DNA of 64,000 bases from Bryobacterales bacterium (GCA_963814795.1 CAWFEK010000013.1:4094-68093), one strand, 5' to 3'. Positions 20,226 through 26,890 are shown, counted from the stretch's first letter. Notes: generated by a model from the letters alone, not told the origin. Numbers and translations are program-made.

Positions 20226-22715
20226 CTACTCATACCGCAGCGCGTTCATCGGATCAATCCCGGTAGCGCGCCGCGCGGGCAAATAACCAGCCAACACCGT
20301 CACCGCAACGATGACCCCTACCGCCGCCAGCATCACCACCGGATCATTCGCCTTGACCCCGAACAACTGGCTTTCCACCAACTTCCCCAGCGCCAACGCC
20401 GCCACCACCCCCGCCACCACGCCCGCACCCACCAGCACAACTACCTCGCGCAGAATCAGCCGCAGTACATTCGCGCGTGAGGCGCCCAGCGCGATACGAA
20501 TTCCGATCTCCTGCGTCCGCCGCGCTACCGCATAAGCGGTAACTCCGTACAACCCCACCGACGCCAGCAGCGTAGCCAGCACTCCAAAAGCAATGGAGAG
20601 CCACGCGAACAGGCGATCCAGAAAATGTGTCTCTTTGACCTGTGCCTCCACCGTCTTTACGTTGAACACCGGCAGCGAAGCGTCCACACCGGCCACGCTT
20701 TGCCGCGCCGCCTGCGCCACCGACAGCGGATCCTGACTGGTCCGCAAATAGTAAGTCACCTCCGCGGGCGCGTCGTCCTGTAACGCCGGCGTGAATGTCC
20801 ACGGCTTCGCCTTTTCCCGCAGGTCGCCGCCCTTCATGTCCCGCGCCACGCCCACGATCTCCATATCCAGCGGCCCACTCTCGCCCCATCCAATGCGATG
20901 CCCCAGTGGACTCTCGTGTGGATAAAACCGCTTTACGAAGGTCTCGTTCACAATCACAACTTTCGGCGCCCCAGCCGTGTCCCGCTCCGTGAAATCGCGC
21001 CCCGCGATCACGCGAGCGCCGGTGGTCTGAAAAAATCCCGGCAGCACTTCATTGAACCCGGGATTCATATCTTCGCCCTCGTGCGCATGATATCCATCCA
21101 TGTGCACCGTATTCTGCCAGTTCACATTCGCCAGTACCGGATACGCCGCGCCGCTGGCGGCTTCCACTCCCGGCAGCCTCTTCAGCTTGTCTTCCAGCTC
21201 GATAAAAAGATGCCTGGCCCGCTCCGGAGTGTAGCGATGCAGCGATGGATCAATCGTCAGCGCCAGCAATCGCGTGGTCTCGATCCCCGAATTGATGGTC
21301 AGCAGCGTATACAAACTCCGCGCAAACAACCCCGCGCCCACCAGCAACAGCAGCGACAATCCCACCTGCGCCGACACCAGCAGCTTTCGCAGCCTGGTCT
21401 GCCCGCCTCCGGACGAATGCTTGCCGGATTCGCTCTTCAACGTCGCGGCTAAATCCGGACGCGTCCCCTGCAGCGCCGGCGCCGATCCAAAAAGAATCGC
21501 GGCCAGTAAACTCACGCCCGCCGTGAAAGCGAAGATGCGGACGTCCGGCGTGGTGTGCAGCGCCGCCCCGATATTCTCGTACGGCAAAATCCCAACCAGC
21601 AGCGATGCCATCCACATCGCGATCAAAACGCCGAGCAGTCCGCCCGCCATGGCTACCAGCAAACTCTCCGTCATCACCAGCCGCACCAGCGAGCCCCGCG
21701 TCGCCCCCAGCGACAACCGTATCGCGATCTCTTTTTGCCTCGCCGCCGCGCGCGTAATCAGCAAATTTGCAATGTTCACGCAAGCGATCAGCAGCAGCGT
21801 CCCCACCATGGCCAGCAAAACGTAAAGCGGCTTTCCAAACATTTGCTGGAATCCCCCGAAGCCTTTCGATGCGTCCGTGAACTGCAGCTTGTTCGCCAGG
21901 TATTTGCTCCGAAATGCTTCCGGTTTCCCAATCGTCTTCAGATCGTTCTCGAGAACATTGCGATACGCAATCGCCATCGCGCTCGCGGCCGCCCGCGGGT
22001 CCTCGCCGGGCTTCAGCCGCGCGAAAACCCTCAGCCAGATGCTGTTGCGCCGCGCCCGATCGTCCCAGGTAGGCGTCACCACCGTCTTCATCGCCAGCGG
22101 AACAAAAACGTCCGCCGGACTCATCGGCGCAAAGCTAGAAAAGCCCCGCTGTGCCACGCCGATTATGGTCATGGGATGTCCATTGACCTCAATGGCCCGG
22201 CCCAGAACCTCAGCATCCCCGCCAAAGCGCCGCTGCCAGTATTCATAACTGATCACCACGTACGGCTCACCGTCTTTGATCCGATCGTCCGCCGCCGCAA
22301 GCGTTCTGCCCATCGCCGGTTGCACGCCCAGCACATCGAAATAGTTACCCGAAACCAGCTCCGCCACGCCGCGTTGCACCACGCCTTTATCAGCGATGTC
22401 CACCGAGTCCTGATAGCGCGCCGCAATCCCGCTGAACACTCCCGGATTGCCATCGCGCAGCTCCACGTATGCTGGATAAGAAAACGAATCCTCGTACCCG
22501 CGCGTCGACCCTCCAATGAACCGCCCGGCCCACTGAAACAGCACCAGCCGCCGCGGCTCCTTCACCGGCAGCGTCCTCAGCAGGATCTGGTCCGTCAACG
22601 TAAAAATCGCCGTGTTCGCCCCAATCCCCAGCGCCAAAGAAACCACCGCCGCCGCAACCAGCGACGGATTCCGCCCCAGGCTCCGCAATACAAATTTAAT
22701 GGTCCGCATCGTCAT
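20226..22715 (-). CDS. ADOP-type duplicated FtsX/MacB-like permease (copy 1)
   Basis: N-terminus RSLGRNPSLVAAAVVSLALGIGANTAIF, two periplasmic-domain plus FtsX-type 4-TM halves, and C-terminal RATGIDPMNALRYE. Confidence 0.9.
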   Translation of the reverse strand: MTMRTIKFVLRSLGRNPSLVAAAVVSLALGIGANTAIFTLTDQILLRTLPVKEPRRLVLFQWAGRFIGGSTRGYEDSFSYPAYVELRDGNPGVFSGIAARYQDSVDIADKGVVQRGVAELVSGNYFDVLGVQPAMGRTLAAADDRIKDGEPYVVISYEYWQRRFGGDAEVLGRAIEVNGHPMTIIGVAQRGFSSFAPMSPADVFVPLAMKTVVTPTWDDRARRNSIWLRVFARLKPGEDPRAAASAMAIAYRNVLENDLKTIGKPEAFRSKYLANKLQFTDASKGFGGFQQMFGKPLYVLLAMVGTLLLIACVNIANLLITRAAARQKEIAIRLSLGATRGSLVRLVMTESLLVAMAGGLLGVLIAMWMASLLVGILPYENIGAALHTTPDVRIFAFTAGVSLLAAILFGSAPALQGTRPDLAATLKSESGKHSSGGGQTRLRKLLVSAQVGLSLLLLVGAGLFARSLYTLLTINSGIETTRLLALTIDPSLHRYTPERARHLFIELEDKLKRLPGVEAASGAAYPVLANVNWQNTVHMDGYHAHEGEDMNPGFNEVLPGFFQTTGARVIAGRDFTERDTAGAPKVVIVNETFVKRFYPHESPLGHRIGWGESGPLDMEIVGVARDMKGGDLREKAKPWTFTPALQDDAPAEVTYYLRTSQDPLSVAQAARQSVAGVDASLPVFNVKTVEAQVKETHFLDRLFAWLSIAFGVLATLLASVGLYGVTAYAVARRTQEIGIRIALGASRANVLRLILREVVVLVGAGVVAGVVAALALGKLVESQLFGVKANDPVVMLAAVGVIVAVTVLAGYLPARRATGIDPMNALRYE

Positions 22716-22761
22716 CTATAGACGCACGAACTACTGTACAGTGAGGGTGAGGTTCACGATA

Positions 22762-22974
22762 ATGAGGCGAACCATACAAGTACGGTTCTTTCGGGGCGAA
22801 AAGAAGTATGTGGCCGAGTGCCTGGACCTTCCCGTGGTCACCGAGGCCGACACCCTGGACGAATTGGCATCGAACATGCGCGAAGCGCTCGCGCTTCACT
22901 TAGAACGCGAAGACCTCGCGGAATTGGGCTTTAGCCTCAATAGGTTAAGCTCCGCCGTTTCAGAGCTGCCTTGA
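22762..22974 (+). CDS. HicB-like (DUF1902-type) antitoxin-domain protein with no DNA-binding domain and no adjacent HicA
   Basis: KYVAECLDLPVVTEADTLDELASNMREALALHLE matches the HicB N-terminal domain pattern from memory. An in-frame GTG at 22741 is an alternative start. Confidence 0.55.
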   Translation: MRRTIQVRFFRGEKKYVAECLDLPVVTEADTLDELASNMREALALHLEREDLAELGFSLNRLSSAVSELP

Positions 22975-22991
22975 ACTTTCCTATACTGAGT

Positions 22992-24131
22992 ATGCAAATG
23001 GAGACCCGCTCTCTCATCAGACGCGTAGTGCTGGAGAACTATAAGAGCATTGCATTCTGCGATGTCAAGCTTGGACCATTATCGATTCTCGTAGGGCCGA
23101 ACGGGGCAGGCAAGAGCAATTTCCTAGATGCACTGCGTTTCCTGTCTGAGCTGATGAACGGTCCCGTCGAGACCGCGTTCCAGCACCGCGAAGGATTCTC
23201 CAACGTCCTCCGACGAGGTGCCGGCCCCGGAGGTCAGTTAGGGATACGAATCGAATTTGTCACATCCGAAGGGGCCGCAGGATTATATTCGGTTCGATTT
23301 TCGCCAGGGGATGTAAAGGACTACGTCGTCGAGCGCCAGAAGTGCAAGGTCGGCGGCGTGGGCTTCGACAGCACAGCTGACCGAGTCGGCGGGTCGGACA
23401 TGTCGCAAAATCCGAAGCTCGCATCCACGTGGCGATTACTTAGCGACTGCCGCTTCTATAACTTTGTCTCTGAGAGGCTTCGCCCGCCAGTTCCTTCGAG
23501 CCGAGAGCGCGTGCTTTTCGGCGACGGTGCAAATCTTGCAAACGTTGTGCACCACATCTCCCGAATGCACCCTGCAGAGTTTGAACGAATAGCTCAGTAC
23601 CTCCAGGCAATCTATCCGGCCCTCCTAGCGGTCGAGTCGACAGAAGCCGGAAGCCATCGCTTCCTTAAATTCCGCGAGAGCAAGGGGATTTTCGACCCGT
23701 TACAGATGTCTGAGGGCACTCTGCGGTCCCTAGCCGTACTAGTTGCTCTGTTCCAGCGAGTGGCCGGCGCGGAGAACGTCTCCTTAGTCGGACTGGAAGA
23801 ACCCGAGACTGCCTTACATCCGGCCGCCGCGGGTGTGCTCTTCGACGCCATGCGGGAGGCCAGCGCCAGCGTCCAGGTCGTCGCAACTACCCACAGCGCC
23901 GATCTGCTGGACAAAAAAGAAATCGATACCAACGCGATCCTTTCGGTAGAACTTATGGACGGTACTACCCGCATCGGCCATCTGGATCAGACTGGTCGGC
24001 AAGCCTTGAGGCAGGAGCTATACACCCCGGGCGAACTGCTGCGAATGAACTACCTCCGGCCGGAGCCCTCCAAAATTCCAAGTGATTCCGAGATTGAGTC
24101 CGTATTGTTCGAGGGCCTGGTCCCCGCCTGA
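22992..24131 (+). CDS. SMC/ABC-type ATPase (AAA_15/AAA_21-like; PtuA/AriA/OLD-ATPase-like)
   Basis: Walker A GPNGAGKSN (about 23094), MSEGTLRSLAVL signature-like motif (about 23706), Walker B SLVGLEEPETALHP (about 23781) and VVATTHS H-loop. The ORF opens at TTG 22971, with ATGs at 22992 and 22998. Confidence 0.8.
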   Translation: MQMETRSLIRRVVLENYKSIAFCDVKLGPLSILVGPNGAGKSNFLDALRFLSELMNGPVETAFQHREGFSNVLRRGAGPGGQLGIRIEFVTSEGAAGLYSVRFSPGDVKDYVVERQKCKVGGVGFDSTADRVGGSDMSQNPKLASTWRLLSDCRFYNFVSERLRPPVPSSRERVLFGDGANLANVVHHISRMHPAEFERIAQYLQAIYPALLAVESTEAGSHRFLKFRESKGIFDPLQMSEGTLRSLAVLVALFQRVAGAENVSLVGLEEPETALHPAAAGVLFDAMREASASVQVVATTHSADLLDKKEIDTNAILSVELMDGTTRIGHLDQTGRQALRQELYTPGELLRMNYLRPEPSKIPSDSEIESVLFEGLVPA

Positions 24132-24736
24132 TGCCCTTCCGGATCGTGCCGATTGTGGAAGGCCACGGGGAAGTGGAAGCATTGCCCATTCTGTTCAGCC
24201 GGCTCATCGCTGAAGTTGATCTTGGAGTCCAAATTAAAGTAGCCCGGCCGATAAGGCAGCAAAAGGGCAGTCTCATCAAGGAGGGCGGAATTGAGAGGGC
24301 CGTCCAACTCGCCGCGATCCAAATCGAAGGAAATGGCGCCATTTTTGTCCTCATTGACAGCGACGGGGACTGTCCTTGCATTCGTGGACGGGAACTTTTA
24401 GCACGTGCTAAGAAGGCCCGTGCCGATATGAGAATTTGCTTGGTCCTGGCGCATCACGAATACGAGGCCTGGTTTCTAGCTTCAGCCTCCAGCCTTAAGG
24501 GATGTCGCCGATTGAGCGACGAAATCCAGGACCATCCCGCGCCTGAATCGGTGCAAAACTGCAAGGGCTGGCTGGAGGAGTCGATGCCACGCACATCAAA
24601 GTATTCAGAAACCGCCGATCAGGCGGCCTTGACAGCGGTATTCGACATCAACCTAGCTCTGCGTGCGCCATCATTCGAAAAATTCTATCGAGACTTTAAA
24701 GGGGTGTGCCAGGAAGCCAAATTGGCCCAGCCTTAG
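24131..24736 (+). CDS. Toprim-like small protein (DUF4276-type)
   Basis: IVPIVEGHGEVEAL (Glu10/Glu14), FVLIDSDGD (Asp76/78/80) and HHEYEAWFLAS give the Glu plus DxD order of Toprim. Its ATG overlaps the ATPase TGA (TGATG). Family assignment is from memory of the DUF4276 consensus. Confidence 0.6.
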   Translation: MPFRIVPIVEGHGEVEALPILFSRLIAEVDLGVQIKVARPIRQQKGSLIKEGGIERAVQLAAIQIEGNGAIFVLIDSDGDCPCIRGRELLARAKKARADMRICLVLAHHEYEAWFLASASSLKGCRRLSDEIQDHPAPESVQNCKGWLEESMPRTSKYSETADQAALTAVFDINLALRAPSFEKFYRDFKGVCQEAKLAQP

Positions 24737-25608
24737 CCTCCCCTCACCAACTCCAAAAACGCCTTCGCCGCATGACTCAAACTTCGCCGCGCCGGACTCA
24801 CCAGATGGATCTTCCGCTCCACGCTCAGCTCCTCCACCCCCACCTCCCGCAGCGTGTCCTGCTTCAACTCCTGCTCCACGCACATCCGCGGCAGGAACGC
24901 CACCCCTTCATTCCGCTGCACCATCTTCCGGATCGTCTCCACCGTCGGCATCTCCACGTCCATGTTCAACGCAACCTTATAACGTTGAAATTCTTTCAAC
25001 ACCACCGCCCGGTAAGGCGACAAAACATTGTGAGCGATAAATGTCTCCATCCCCAGTTCGCTGATGGAAACCTTCCCCCGACTGGCGAACCGGTGCTCGG
25101 GCGAAACCACGAACGCCAGGTGATCGGTGAACAATATCATTGACACCAGCCGGTCATCCTCCGGATCGTAGCTGATCACTCCCAGTTCCAGATCGCCGTC
25201 AATCAGCTGCGATGGAATCTTGCTCGAAAGCGAACGCCGCACCTGCACCTTCACTTTGGGATACAACCGCCGATACCGCTCAATGTGCCCCAACAAATAC
25301 AGCGACGTCGATTCGTTCGCCCCCACCGTCAGCCTCCCGGCCGAGTTATCGCGCAATTCCGCCAGCGCAACCTCCAGGTCACCCTCCAGATTCTCGAATC
25401 GCCGCGCGTATTCGTAAACAATCCGTCCCGCATCGGTCAAAAGCAGCTCCTTGCCCGACCGGTCAATCAGCCGCTCTTGCAAATCCGATTCCAGCTTCTG
25501 AACCGCCAGCGACACCGCCGGCTGTGTGCGCAACAGCTTTTCCCCGGCCCGTGAGAAGCTTTTCTCGTTAGCAACCGTCAGGAAGACCTTTAGCGGATAC
25601 AGTTCCAT
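24733..25608 (-). CDS. LysR-family transcriptional regulator
   Basis: N-terminal wHTH MELYPLKVFLTVANEKSFSRAGEKLLRTQPAVSLAVQKLE plus a substrate-binding domain. It is divergent from leuA. Confidence 0.9.
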   Translation of the reverse strand: MELYPLKVFLTVANEKSFSRAGEKLLRTQPAVSLAVQKLESDLQERLIDRSGKELLLTDAGRIVYEYARRFENLEGDLEVALAELRDNSAGRLTVGANESTSLYLLGHIERYRRLYPKVKVQVRRSLSSKIPSQLIDGDLELGVISYDPEDDRLVSMILFTDHLAFVVSPEHRFASRGKVSISELGMETFIAHNVLSPYRAVVLKEFQRYKVALNMDVEMPTVETIRKMVQRNEGVAFLPRMCVEQELKQDTLREVGVEELSVERKIHLVSPARRSLSHAAKAFLELVRGG

Positions 25609-25713: not shown

Positions 25714-26890
25714 ATGCCGAATCGCGTCTACCTCTTCGACACCACCCTCCGGGATGGAGAACAATCCCCCGGTTGCAGCATGACCGTGCCCGAAAAGCTT
25801 CGGCTCGCACGCAAACTGGTCGAACTTGGCGTCGACGTTCTGGAAGCCGGCTTCCCCATCGCTTCCGACGGCGATTTCGAAGCAGTGGACGCCGTCAGCC
25901 GCGAATTCCCGTGGGCCCAGGTAGCCGCCCTCGCGCGAGCCAACACGCCGGATATCGAACGCGCCGCCGCCGCTCTGAAACATGCCAAGCGCCCGCGCAT
26001 TCACACCTTCATCGCTACCAGCGACATTCATCTCAAATACAAATTGAAGAAATCGCGCCAGCAGGTCTTGGATGAAGCCGTCGCCGCCGTCGAGCTTGCG
26101 CGCGAGCATACTGACGACGTCGAGTTTTCCGCCGAAGACGCCACCCGTACTGACTGGGATTATCTCGAACAAATCTGCCACGCCGTGGTCGCCGCCGGCG
26201 CCCGCACCGTCAACCTTCCGGACACCGTCGGCTACTCCATCCCCGAAGAATATGCCGCGTTGATCGGCCGCATGGTCCGCGCACTCGGGAACAGCGCCAT
26301 CGTCAGCGTCCATTGTCACGATGACCTGGGCCTGGCTGTCGCCAATTCCATCGCCGCCGTCCAAGCCGGCGCCCGCCAGATCGAATGCACTATCAACGGC
26401 ATCGGTGAGCGTGCCGGCAACGCCGCGCTCGAAGAAATCGTGATGGCCTTCAAAACCCGGCCCGACAAGCTGCCCTACGAAACTAAAATCGTCACCGAGC
26501 ACATTTATTCCACCAGCCAGCTTCTCGCGCAAACCATCACTTTCGGACCCCAGCCCAACAAAGCCATCGTCGGCGAGAATGCCTTCGCCCACGAAGCCGG
26601 CATTCATCAGGACGGCTATTTGAAGGAACGCACCACTTACGAAATCATCGAACCAACCTACCGTCGGCGTCCCGGAAAGCAAACTCGTCCTAGGCAAACA
26701 CAGCGGCCGCCACGCTCTGCACCAACGCGCCGAAGTCCTGGGCTTCGAACTCAATAAAGAAGAACTGGACCACCTGTACCATCGCTTCACCGCCATCGCC
26801 GACCGCAAAAAGGGCCTGCGCAACGAAGAAATAATCGCCCTGATCCACGAACTGATAGGCGAAACTTCGAAAGCCGCCGCCAATGACTGA
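25714..26890 (+). pseudogene. leuA: 2-isopropylmalate synthase family, short form; apparent 1-nt insertion near 26653-26663
   Basis: Frame 1 gives [20 protein letters not shown]...[13 protein letters not shown]...[10 protein letters not shown]...TYEIIEP. Frame 2 continues [51 protein letters not shown]...AAND to the stop at 26888-26890. Confidence 0.85.

Follow-up and report, generated by a model that had tools for sequence, protein, structure and literature searches.

A HEC-01-type ATPase-DUF4276 gene pair preceded by a truncated hicB at a lysR-leuABCD locus of a Bryobacterales bacterium

Introduction

The candidate antiphage system HEC-01 (Hma-embedded candidate 01; PADLOC-DB v2) has been described as an ABC ATPase paired with a TOPRIM-like protein that has a conserved metal site, the two genes being embedded in Hma operons (Payne et al., bioRxiv 10.1101/2024.01.29.577857). 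The DUF4276 family has been placed in the Toprim superfamily and equated with Mad4 of the MADS system (PMC12065111), and deletions of mad2-4 lower MADS defense. Here, we analyzed a locus with a related composition in a 64,000-nucleotide (nt) stretch of DNA from a Bryobacterales bacterium (GCA_963814795.1, CAWFEK010000013.1:4094-68093), the whole of which we refer to as the window. At this locus, a short open reading frame (ORF) of the HicB antitoxin family, designated hicB', is followed on the same strand by genes for an ABC-type ATPase and a 201-amino-acid (aa) DUF4276 protein. An initial annotation of the sequence had taken these three ORFs as one horizontally acquired defense cassette, with the split OLD, PARIS, and Septu systems as candidate relatives.

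Results

The ATPase and DUF4276 proteins match HEC-01

Both proteins of the pair matched HEC-01 models in PADLOC over their full lengths. The ATPase aligned through residues 1-364 to positions 1-389 of the 399-position HEC-01A profile (PDLC04178; E = 4.9e-114, 379.5 bits), and the 201-aa protein aligned through residues 4-194 to positions 3-193 of the 197-position HEC-01B profile (PDLC04196; E = 9.3e-67). Other PADLOC models were far weaker on the ATPase, including AriA (E = 1.3e-28), mad3 (4e-24), Old (6.4e-20), AbiLi (7e-18), and GajA (2e-14). In Pfam, the ATPase matched AAA_21 (E = 2.3e-28) and AAA_15 (E = 2.7e-18), and the 201-aa protein matched DUF4276 (E = 3.5e-12) with 47.4 bits, above the cut-off of 30.2. 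Translations of both genes contain the motifs read initially, with GPNGAGKSN (Walker A), MSEGTLR (signature), LVGLEEPE (Walker B), and TTHS (H-loop) in the ATPase and three acidic motifs in its partner, IVEGHGE (E10/E14), LIDSDGD (D76/78/80), and EYEAWFLA (E110/E112).

Judged from these sequence matches, the pair is almost certainly a member of HEC-01. The results also bear out the broader suggestion that the locus is of the split OLD- or PARIS-like kind, in which an ABC ATPase is accompanied by a separate Toprim-type effector. The pair is not new, being already catalogued in PADLOC as HEC-01 and related to MAD3/MAD4 of MADS.

The pair is strictly conserved and is an old resident at the 3' end of lysR

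Scanning GTDB species representatives, we retrieved at least 554 relatives of the DUF4276 protein and examined the best 80 loci, drawn from many phyla. An ATPase gene lay directly upstream of the DUF4276 gene in 78 of the 78 loci that had upstream DNA, demonstrating that the pairing is strictly conserved and confirming the colocalization anticipated in the initial annotation. Immediate neighbors of the pair in the 80 loci were mostly metabolic genes. Helicase, methylase, HsdR, or second AAA_21 ATPase genes neighbored the pair in ~10-15% of these loci. The pair was rare among plasmid records (3 of 72,556) and phage records (1 of 50,697).

We then considered the chromosomal slot that the pair occupies next to lysR in relative loci, which are denoted below by L numbers. 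The convergent overlap of the DUF4276 and lysR stop codons seen in the window recurs in L012 and L016, and the two genes are directly adjacent in L017 and L018. The DUF4276 proteins of these loci are 75% (L012), 61% (L016), 62% (L017), and 59% (L018) identical to that of the window, and their upstream flanks are mutually unrelated. Between the window and L012, synonymous divergence (dS) was 0.76 for leuA, 0.80 for lysR, and 1.35 for the ATPase gene, with a ratio of nonsynonymous to synonymous divergence (dN/dS, or omega) of 0.11 for the latter; between the window and L016, dS was 1.4-1.7. In Terriglobia relatives with the pair at the lysR stop, flank dS was 0.5-1.4. Because the same junction is found in relatives whose flanks already show such large dS, the pair appears to be an old resident of the slot and not a recent import. 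Its presence is polymorphic, since the slot is without the pair in L010/L011 and L098, which are equally close to the window. By these sequence comparisons, the pair is an old, vertically inherited, and selectively maintained Terriglobia resident at the lysR 3' end beside leuABCD.

The horizontal acquisition proposed in the initial annotation is not supported as a recent event by this synteny and dS: species-level relatives carry the module at this position, and it has diverged in keeping with its flanks, at an omega of ~0.1. The modest GC deficit of the cassette is insufficient support for such an origin. The initial hand counts of G+C were exact (28/60 at 23041-23100 and 38/60 at 25801-25860), and the cassette is AT-richer than its surroundings as claimed but only by ~3 points (56.5% GC versus 59.6% for the window). 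A windowed scan gave a GC z score of -1.96 for the cassette, with ~3% of equal-sized segments equally low, and the neighboring lysR is likewise low in overall GC. GC content at third codon positions was 0.65 in the ATPase gene and 0.594 in the DUF4276 gene, the lowest among the 33 long ORFs of the window, versus a mean of 0.70 +/- 0.04.

In L012 (4654-4872) and L017 (8350-8664), part of the lysR 3' end is duplicated to the left of the cassette. Since a full lysR lies on the right and a partial copy on the left, the module is flanked by direct repeats in these two loci. A further partial duplicate lies to the left of hicB' and the cassette in L181 (49-156), a locus whose right side is uncovered by sequence. 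These duplicates resemble what Campbell-type or duplicative recombination at lysR would leave behind.

The DUF4276 protein has Toprim-type motifs in a Toprim-type order

To assess the acidic motifs of the 201-aa protein, we aligned 27 of its relatives. D76, E110, and E112 were invariant in this alignment, and E10 and E14 were nearly so. In an AlphaFold2 model of the protein (pLDDT 94), secondary structure elements and acidic residues follow the order beta1-[E]-alpha-beta2-alpha-beta3-[DxD]-alpha-beta4-[ExE], with E10 after the strand at 3-9, D76-S-D78 at the end of the strand at 69-76, and E110/E112 after the strand at 101-107. A glutamate after beta1 and a DxD motif after beta3 in beta-alpha order, as in a Toprim domain, are found in this protein by both its motifs and its model.

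Searches with the fold itself gave no such indication. When the model was compared with the PDB and BFVD in Foldseek, no match reached E <= 0.001, the top 50 included no Toprim protein, and OLD, GajA, and AriB were not matched. The weak matches obtained were to unrelated proteins, lumazine synthase and giant-virus proteins with template modeling scores of ~0.4, which neither support nor deny a Toprim fold. No relative was found when PDB sequences were searched with a profile, and hhalign against the single P2 Old sequence placed VPIVEGHGE onto Old residues 394-447, which fall within the Pfam OLD-like_TOPRIM domain of Old (389-455), with a probability of only 0.5%. The initial description of the protein as Toprim-like is supported by its motifs and the literature, but the fold is unconfirmed by these searches.

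The ATPase gene has a conserved leader and a variable insert

A promoter scan predicted a promoter ahead of the ATPase gene, composed of TTCAGA (22959-22964), a 17-nt spacer, and TATACT (22982-22987). This -10 element ends 10 nt before the ATG at 22998, and a Shine-Dalgarno sequence is absent. The sequence TTTC[CA]TATACT precedes the ATG by 8-10 nt in the window and in L012, L015, L016, L017, L018, L019, L022, L178, L179, and L182, 11 lineages with unrelated upstream flanks. All Terriglobia-lineage copies lack a Shine-Dalgarno sequence, and more distant relatives have ordinary GGAGG sites. The conserved leader together with the lack of a Shine-Dalgarno sequence suggests that the ATPase gene has its own promoter and a leaderless or near-leaderless mRNA in Terriglobia. 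The ORFs of the locus do abut as initially reported, but they are not free of spacers, as this conserved promoter-like element sits between the first ORF and the ATPase gene. We also confirmed the presence of an ATG at 22992, from which the ATPase would be 379 aa and not the 380 aa first given; the start that is conserved in relatives and chosen by gene callers is the ATG at 22998.

Residues 56-195 of the ATPase (23163-23582), between Walker A and the signature motif, show 25-68% identity among relatives versus 61-87% for the core. Such variability is as expected for a specificity or sensor region, making this insert a candidate for that role.

hicB' derives from a hicBA locus and is not a general part of HEC-01

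To place the upstream ORF, we assembled a hicB family of 870 members with a consensus length of 73 aa. The hicB' ORF matched the hidden Markov model (HMM) that we built from this family with 121.7 bits (E = 6e-37); Pfam matches were below threshold (DUF1902, E = 0.001; HicB_lk, E = 0.015). The family HMM and a syntenic orthologue accompanied by a PF07927 HicA identify a HicB-family antitoxin domain in hicB'. In an AlphaFold2 model of the family, three strands (7-11, 16-20, and 26-29) precede a helix (32-48), and the tail is of low confidence. As the initial annotation had noted, the ORF is without a DNA-binding tail and lacks a toxin partner, with no HicA-like ORF in any frame of the 64-kb window.

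The syntenic orthologue is found in L010/L011, where the same slot contains the permease gene, hicB (73 aa), hicA (81 aa, PF07927), and lysR. Homology between the window and L010/L011 runs from the permease gene through hicB codon ~57, is gone from ~22931 to ~24731, and resumes at the lysR stop, so that synteny bounds the variable slot precisely. From this arrangement, the upstream ORF very probably descends from a hicB-hicA pair resident at the same slot. Among 78 metagenomic loci of the hicB family with room downstream, hicA was intact in 62, disrupted in ~10, and missing in ~6, amounting to loss or disruption in ~20%, and HEC-01 followed hicB in none. The two genes are mostly joined by an ATGA start/stop overlap in this family. 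We also observed a third allele of the slot, in L098 (3219-3350), with an intact hicB, a hicA cut after ~10 codons, and a short CCCGAGTCCCCAG-type repeat before lysR.

The three-gene cassette of the initial annotation did not hold beyond the pair. Of the 80 distant HEC-01 loci, a single one (L054) contained an ORF resembling hicB by the family HMM, with a weak match, and because of this rarity HicB is not a general HEC-01 component. Closer to the window, the pair sits at the lysR junction without hicB in L012, L016, L017, and L018, and hicB is absent from L019 too. In L054, which is from a WOR-3 bacterium, a weak HicB/UPF0150-like ORF (2538-2912) lies directly upstream of the HEC-01 ATPase gene, with small opposite-strand ORFs nearby.

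A truncated hicB' of 68 aa followed by the ATPase gene was found in four further alleles (L015, L178, L179-181, and L182). All of them have a common junction, after ...PDPT[IV], and a common leader, with differing left-hand neighbors. L015 is a long-read metagenome contig with many frameshifts (the ATPase gene, lysR, leuA, leuB, and leuC are split), and only its large-scale junction was used. In the window, residues 1-57 of hicB' are native, and the last 13 residues (the FSLNRLSSAVSELP tail) are out of frame through a 20-nt deletion, which is common to the window and the independent assemblies L001-L004 and absent from the other four alleles. The C-terminal ~9 residues of hicB were replaced at the ancestral junction, and the tail was frameshifted again in the window lineage. 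At codon 51, L001 and L002 have lost one more nucleotide, which shortens the product from 70 to 61 aa; at 22909-22913, the window has GAAGACC versus GAAGCC in these otherwise identical sequences, and the state in the window is in frame, as in other lineages. The predicted structured core of hicB' (residues 7-48) is intact in every copy.

A palindrome, ACTGTACAGT, is conserved upstream of hicB or hicB' in L010, L178, L179, and L182, with partial conservation in L015, and may serve the hicB unit as an operator or promoter element.

hicB' has been retained under purifying selection

Across the five lineages that lack hicA, codons 1-57 of hicB' showed pairwise dN/dS values of 0.04-0.13 at dS of 0.3-2.2 (binomial P versus neutrality, 1e-5 to 1e-11). 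On account of these values, hicB' has been kept by selection since the loss of its toxin. We consider the most likely reason for this retention to be neutralization of HicA paralogues elsewhere in the genome, with modulation of the adjacent cassette a less likely one.

These data bear on whether hicB' is a decaying pseudogene without present function, leaving the pair alone functional, which we consider unlikely. Decay is suggested in the window lineage alone by the 20-nt deletion, which removes the DPTILATMEL segment (T62, I63, T66, and E68 are >= 90% conserved), and by the additional deletion at codon 51 in L001 and L002, and hicB is repeatedly found in the family without an intact hicA, at the frequency given above. 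Against decay, comparisons that include the window still show strong purifying selection on codons 1-57 (omega, 0.04-0.13; P <= 1.2e-5), the predicted core is unbroken in all copies, and the start codon and conserved upstream region of hicB' are intact. The notion of hicB as a mere decaying remnant abutting the cassette, which we had entertained, was softened by the finding of four more 68-aa alleles with the same junction and a dN/dS of ~0.1.

A second alternative is that the toxin-less, truncated HicB was captured by the module in this sub-lineage as a functional third component. In this reading, the RNase-H-like N-terminal domain of HicB would be transcribed together with the pair and would neutralize, regulate, or restrain the effector, or else sense phage factors or act as their decoy. 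The occurrence of one hicB'-cassette junction in five or more lineages (the window, L015, L178, L179-181, and L182) with four different left-hand neighbors is in keeping with such co-option, as are the low dN/dS since hicA loss, the position of hicB' on the same strand, ~25-50 nt ahead of the ATPase start and not separated from it by a terminator-like site, and the HicB/UPF0150-like ORF before the ATPase gene in the distant WOR-3 locus. Linkage alone is weak evidence, as adjacent genes stay adjacent by default, and orphan antitoxins can persist to counter paralogous toxins. Furthermore, HicB is missing from 79 of the 80 distant loci and from the five closer loci named above, and downstream of hicB' the cassette still has a promoter-like leader of its own. 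The hicB' tail is also unconserved (VAAIG, ADAIV, VVVAAG, and LVSIG in different copies and the frameshift in the window), and near-identical strains carry the additional frameshift. On balance, we regard co-option as doubtful. The initial proposal of HicB as a regulator or neutralizer fails for HEC-01 in general but is possible within the sub-lineage, given the shared junction and purifying selection in at least five lineages. If true, co-option would mean that a type II antitoxin fold was exapted into a defense system without a toxin or a DNA-binding domain.

Organization of the locus

We reproduced the coordinates of the three same-strand ORFs, their overlaps, the start of the divergent permease gene at 22715, and the lysR stop overlap reported initially (Table 1). 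The TGA of hicB' (22972-22974) overlaps the TTG at 22971 within TTGA (22971-22974), the ATPase stop overlaps the DUF4276 start within TGATG (24129-24133), and the DUF4276 stop overlaps the convergent lysR stop by 4 nt (TTAG, 24733-24736). LysR is a neighbor of the cassette that adjoins leuABCD and is not a component of the system.

Table 1. Features of the HEC-01 locus, with positions counted from the first nucleotide of the window
Feature	Position	Strand	Description
Palindrome ACTGTACAGT	22733-22742		Perfect, 10 bp, between permease gene and hicB'
hicB'	22762-22974	+	70 aa, orphan HicB-family antitoxin domain with altered C-terminus
Cassette left end and leader	22940-22997	+	Predicted sigma-70-like promoter (promoter scan)
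HEC-01A, ABC-type (AAA_21/AAA_15) ATPase	22998-24131	+	377 aa from conserved start; alternative starts at 22992 and 22971
HEC-01B, DUF4276 protein	24131-24736	+	201 aa, presumed Toprim-like nuclease effector
LysR-family regulator	24733-25608	-	Pfam HTH_1 and LysR_substrate; right-hand anchor of cassette

Within leuA of the window (26650-26660), we observed an extra C, AACCAACCTACC versus AACCAA-CTACC in L001, L012, and L010, which causes a frameshift after codon 323. This is probably an assembly indel error in the record; otherwise leuA is a pseudogene. The extra C calls for caution when reading single-base indels elsewhere in the window.

Discussion

A proposed mechanism and its weighing

We favor, with a moderate degree of confidence, an explanation of the whole locus as a HEC-01 module in which an ATPase controls a nuclease for defense, accompanied by a hicB' that derives from hicBA and has been retained. 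The mechanistic part, ATPase-controlled nuclease defense, we rate slightly above an even chance, taking PARIS, OLD, and Gabija as templates by analogy. HEC-01A, translationally coupled to HEC-01B, would form a dimer or oligomer serving as both sensor and scaffold, and the hypervariable insert (residues ~56-195) would recognize a phage-derived cue. ATP binding or hydrolysis may then license or release the acidic, putatively metal-binding DUF4276 effector (E10, D76/D78, and E110/E112), which would cleave either DNA of the phage or RNA of the host, for instance tRNA, so that the infection would be aborted. In an ancestor, hicA and the last ~9 codons of hicB would have been lost, leaving hicB' abutting the cassette, and hicB' has since been kept by purifying selection. 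The sequence data themselves show membership in the family, the strictness of the pairing, the synteny, the junctions, and the selection on hicB'; the nuclease activity, its trigger, abortive infection, and the role of hicB' are inferred.

Several observations speak against this explanation. The HEC-01 tested by Payne et al. gave no protection in E. coli (bioRxiv 10.1101/2024.01.29.577857), whereas a different representative did shield E. coli B from one or more of the phages T4, T5, and T7; the phage tests of two representatives disagree, and the mechanism of HEC-01 is unpublished. The structural and profile searches described above returned no significant Toprim match for the presumed nuclease. 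The local context is one of housekeeping genes (permease, lysR, and leuABCD) with no defense island, most immediate neighbors of the pair across the 80 loci are likewise metabolic, and stable vertical inheritance with an omega of ~0.1 is compatible with a non-defense role too. For hicB', persistence under selection by the cassette in five lineages fits co-option equally well, the tail is frameshifted in the window, and the product is cut to 61 aa in the near-identical L001 and L002.

Many of the same observations would fit a pair that serves housekeeping nucleic acid maintenance, such as repair or recombination in the manner of the ABC/SMC-like ATPase RecF and the Toprim protein RecR, and not immunity. 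Such a role would be consistent with inheritance at the lysR-leuABCD site across dS of at least 1.4, with the metabolic neighbors and the rarity on plasmids and phages, with weak matches of the ATPase N-terminus to RecF/SMC models, and with the inactivity of one HEC-01 against phages. It would account less well for the absence of the pair from the same slot in close relatives (L010/L011 and L098), for a hypervariable ATPase insert of a type typical of arms-race sensors, and for divergence of the pair proteins far faster than that of LysR or LeuA. In addition, the family is found within Hma defense operons, Mad3/Mad4 contribute to MADS defense, one HEC-01 representative is phage protective, and a minority of loci have the helicase, methylase, HsdR, or second-ATPase neighbors noted above. 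We consider a housekeeping role quite improbable and retain ATPase-controlled nuclease defense as the preferred reading of the pair.

Our findings are mainly a correction, in that the triad headed by HicB arose by accident from the history of a hicBA locus and is not a new system architecture. HEC-01 is widespread, with a close DUF4276 relative in more than 550 GTDB species representatives, and the variable insert of its ATPase is now defined as a candidate specificity determinant. At one chromosomal slot, we found an allele series that comprises hicBA, hicB alone, hicB'-HEC-01, lysR'-HEC-01, and HEC-01 alone, and the window provides an example of an orphan antitoxin under selection beside a defense module. 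The allele series and the retained hicB' are useful handles for mechanistic study.

Comparison with known systems

Of the systems first proposed as candidates for membership, neither Septu nor PARIS fits in partner domain or model scores. For Septu, the ATPase scored 18.5 bits with the NCBIfam PtuA model versus a cut-off of 500, and its partner is a DUF4276 protein and not an HNH protein. PARIS is similar in splitting an AAA_15/21 ABC ATPase from a separate small acidic Toprim-type effector, and AriA models match the ATPase at an E value of 1.3e-28. The PARIS partner AriB is a DUF4435 protein, unlike the DUF4276 partner in the window; no AriB or DUF4435 match was found in PADLOC or Pfam for the 201-aa protein and 26 relatives. 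The ATPase is also ~100 residues shorter than AriA, and its score of 98.8 bits with AriA versus 379.5 bits with HEC-01A indicates a paralogue and not AriA itself.

Membership in AbiL/RloAB was likewise rejected, as the 201-aa protein had no RloB match and AbiLi matched the ATPase at 7e-18 only; three of the 27 relatives of the 201-aa protein had a sub-threshold RloB match (E = 0.098). OLD and GajA share the ATPase class with the window protein, and hhalign sets VEGxGE on the Toprim glutamate region of P2 Old, not significantly. Unlike these fusions, the window has two polypeptides, with no OLD-like_TOPRIM Pfam match and no GajB-like helicase partner, and neither protein matches PF20469, which the P2 Old control does. 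These differences exclude the pair from OLD/GajA.

The type II HicAB systems with hicB-hicA order and a short HicB without a DNA-binding domain are the counterpart of the upstream ORF, which belongs to a 73-aa HicB-like family usually followed by a PF07927 HicA. In contrast to these systems, the window has no adjacent hicA, the C-terminus of hicB' was replaced and then frameshifted, and Pfam HicB models are sub-threshold.

MADS, through MAD3/MAD4 (Maestri et al.; NCBIfam NF047739), resembles the window in combining an AAA_21-type ATPase with a DUF4276 partner, and the ATPase is distantly similar to MAD3 (NCBIfam E = 1.5e-30; PADLOC mad3, 4e-24). The NF047739 score of 106.7 bits is far under the cut-off of 420, the 201-aa protein matches none of the PADLOC mad4 models, and the annotated adjacent genes (permease, lysR, and leuABCD) include no methyltransferase or other mad genes. 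On the basis of this score and these neighbors, membership in MADS was rejected.

The closest system is HEC-01 itself. The window copy differs from described HEC-01 in lying outside an Hma, MADS, or restriction-modification operon, alone between the permease gene and lysR-leuABCD, and in having an orphan hicB' upstream and a lineage-specific TATACT leader. Its genes and their order are those of HEC-01, with an ABC ATPase gene preceding a translationally coupled gene for a DUF4276/TOPRIM-like protein of ~200 aa; both models are matched over the full length, and the acidic metal-site residues are conserved in the window protein.

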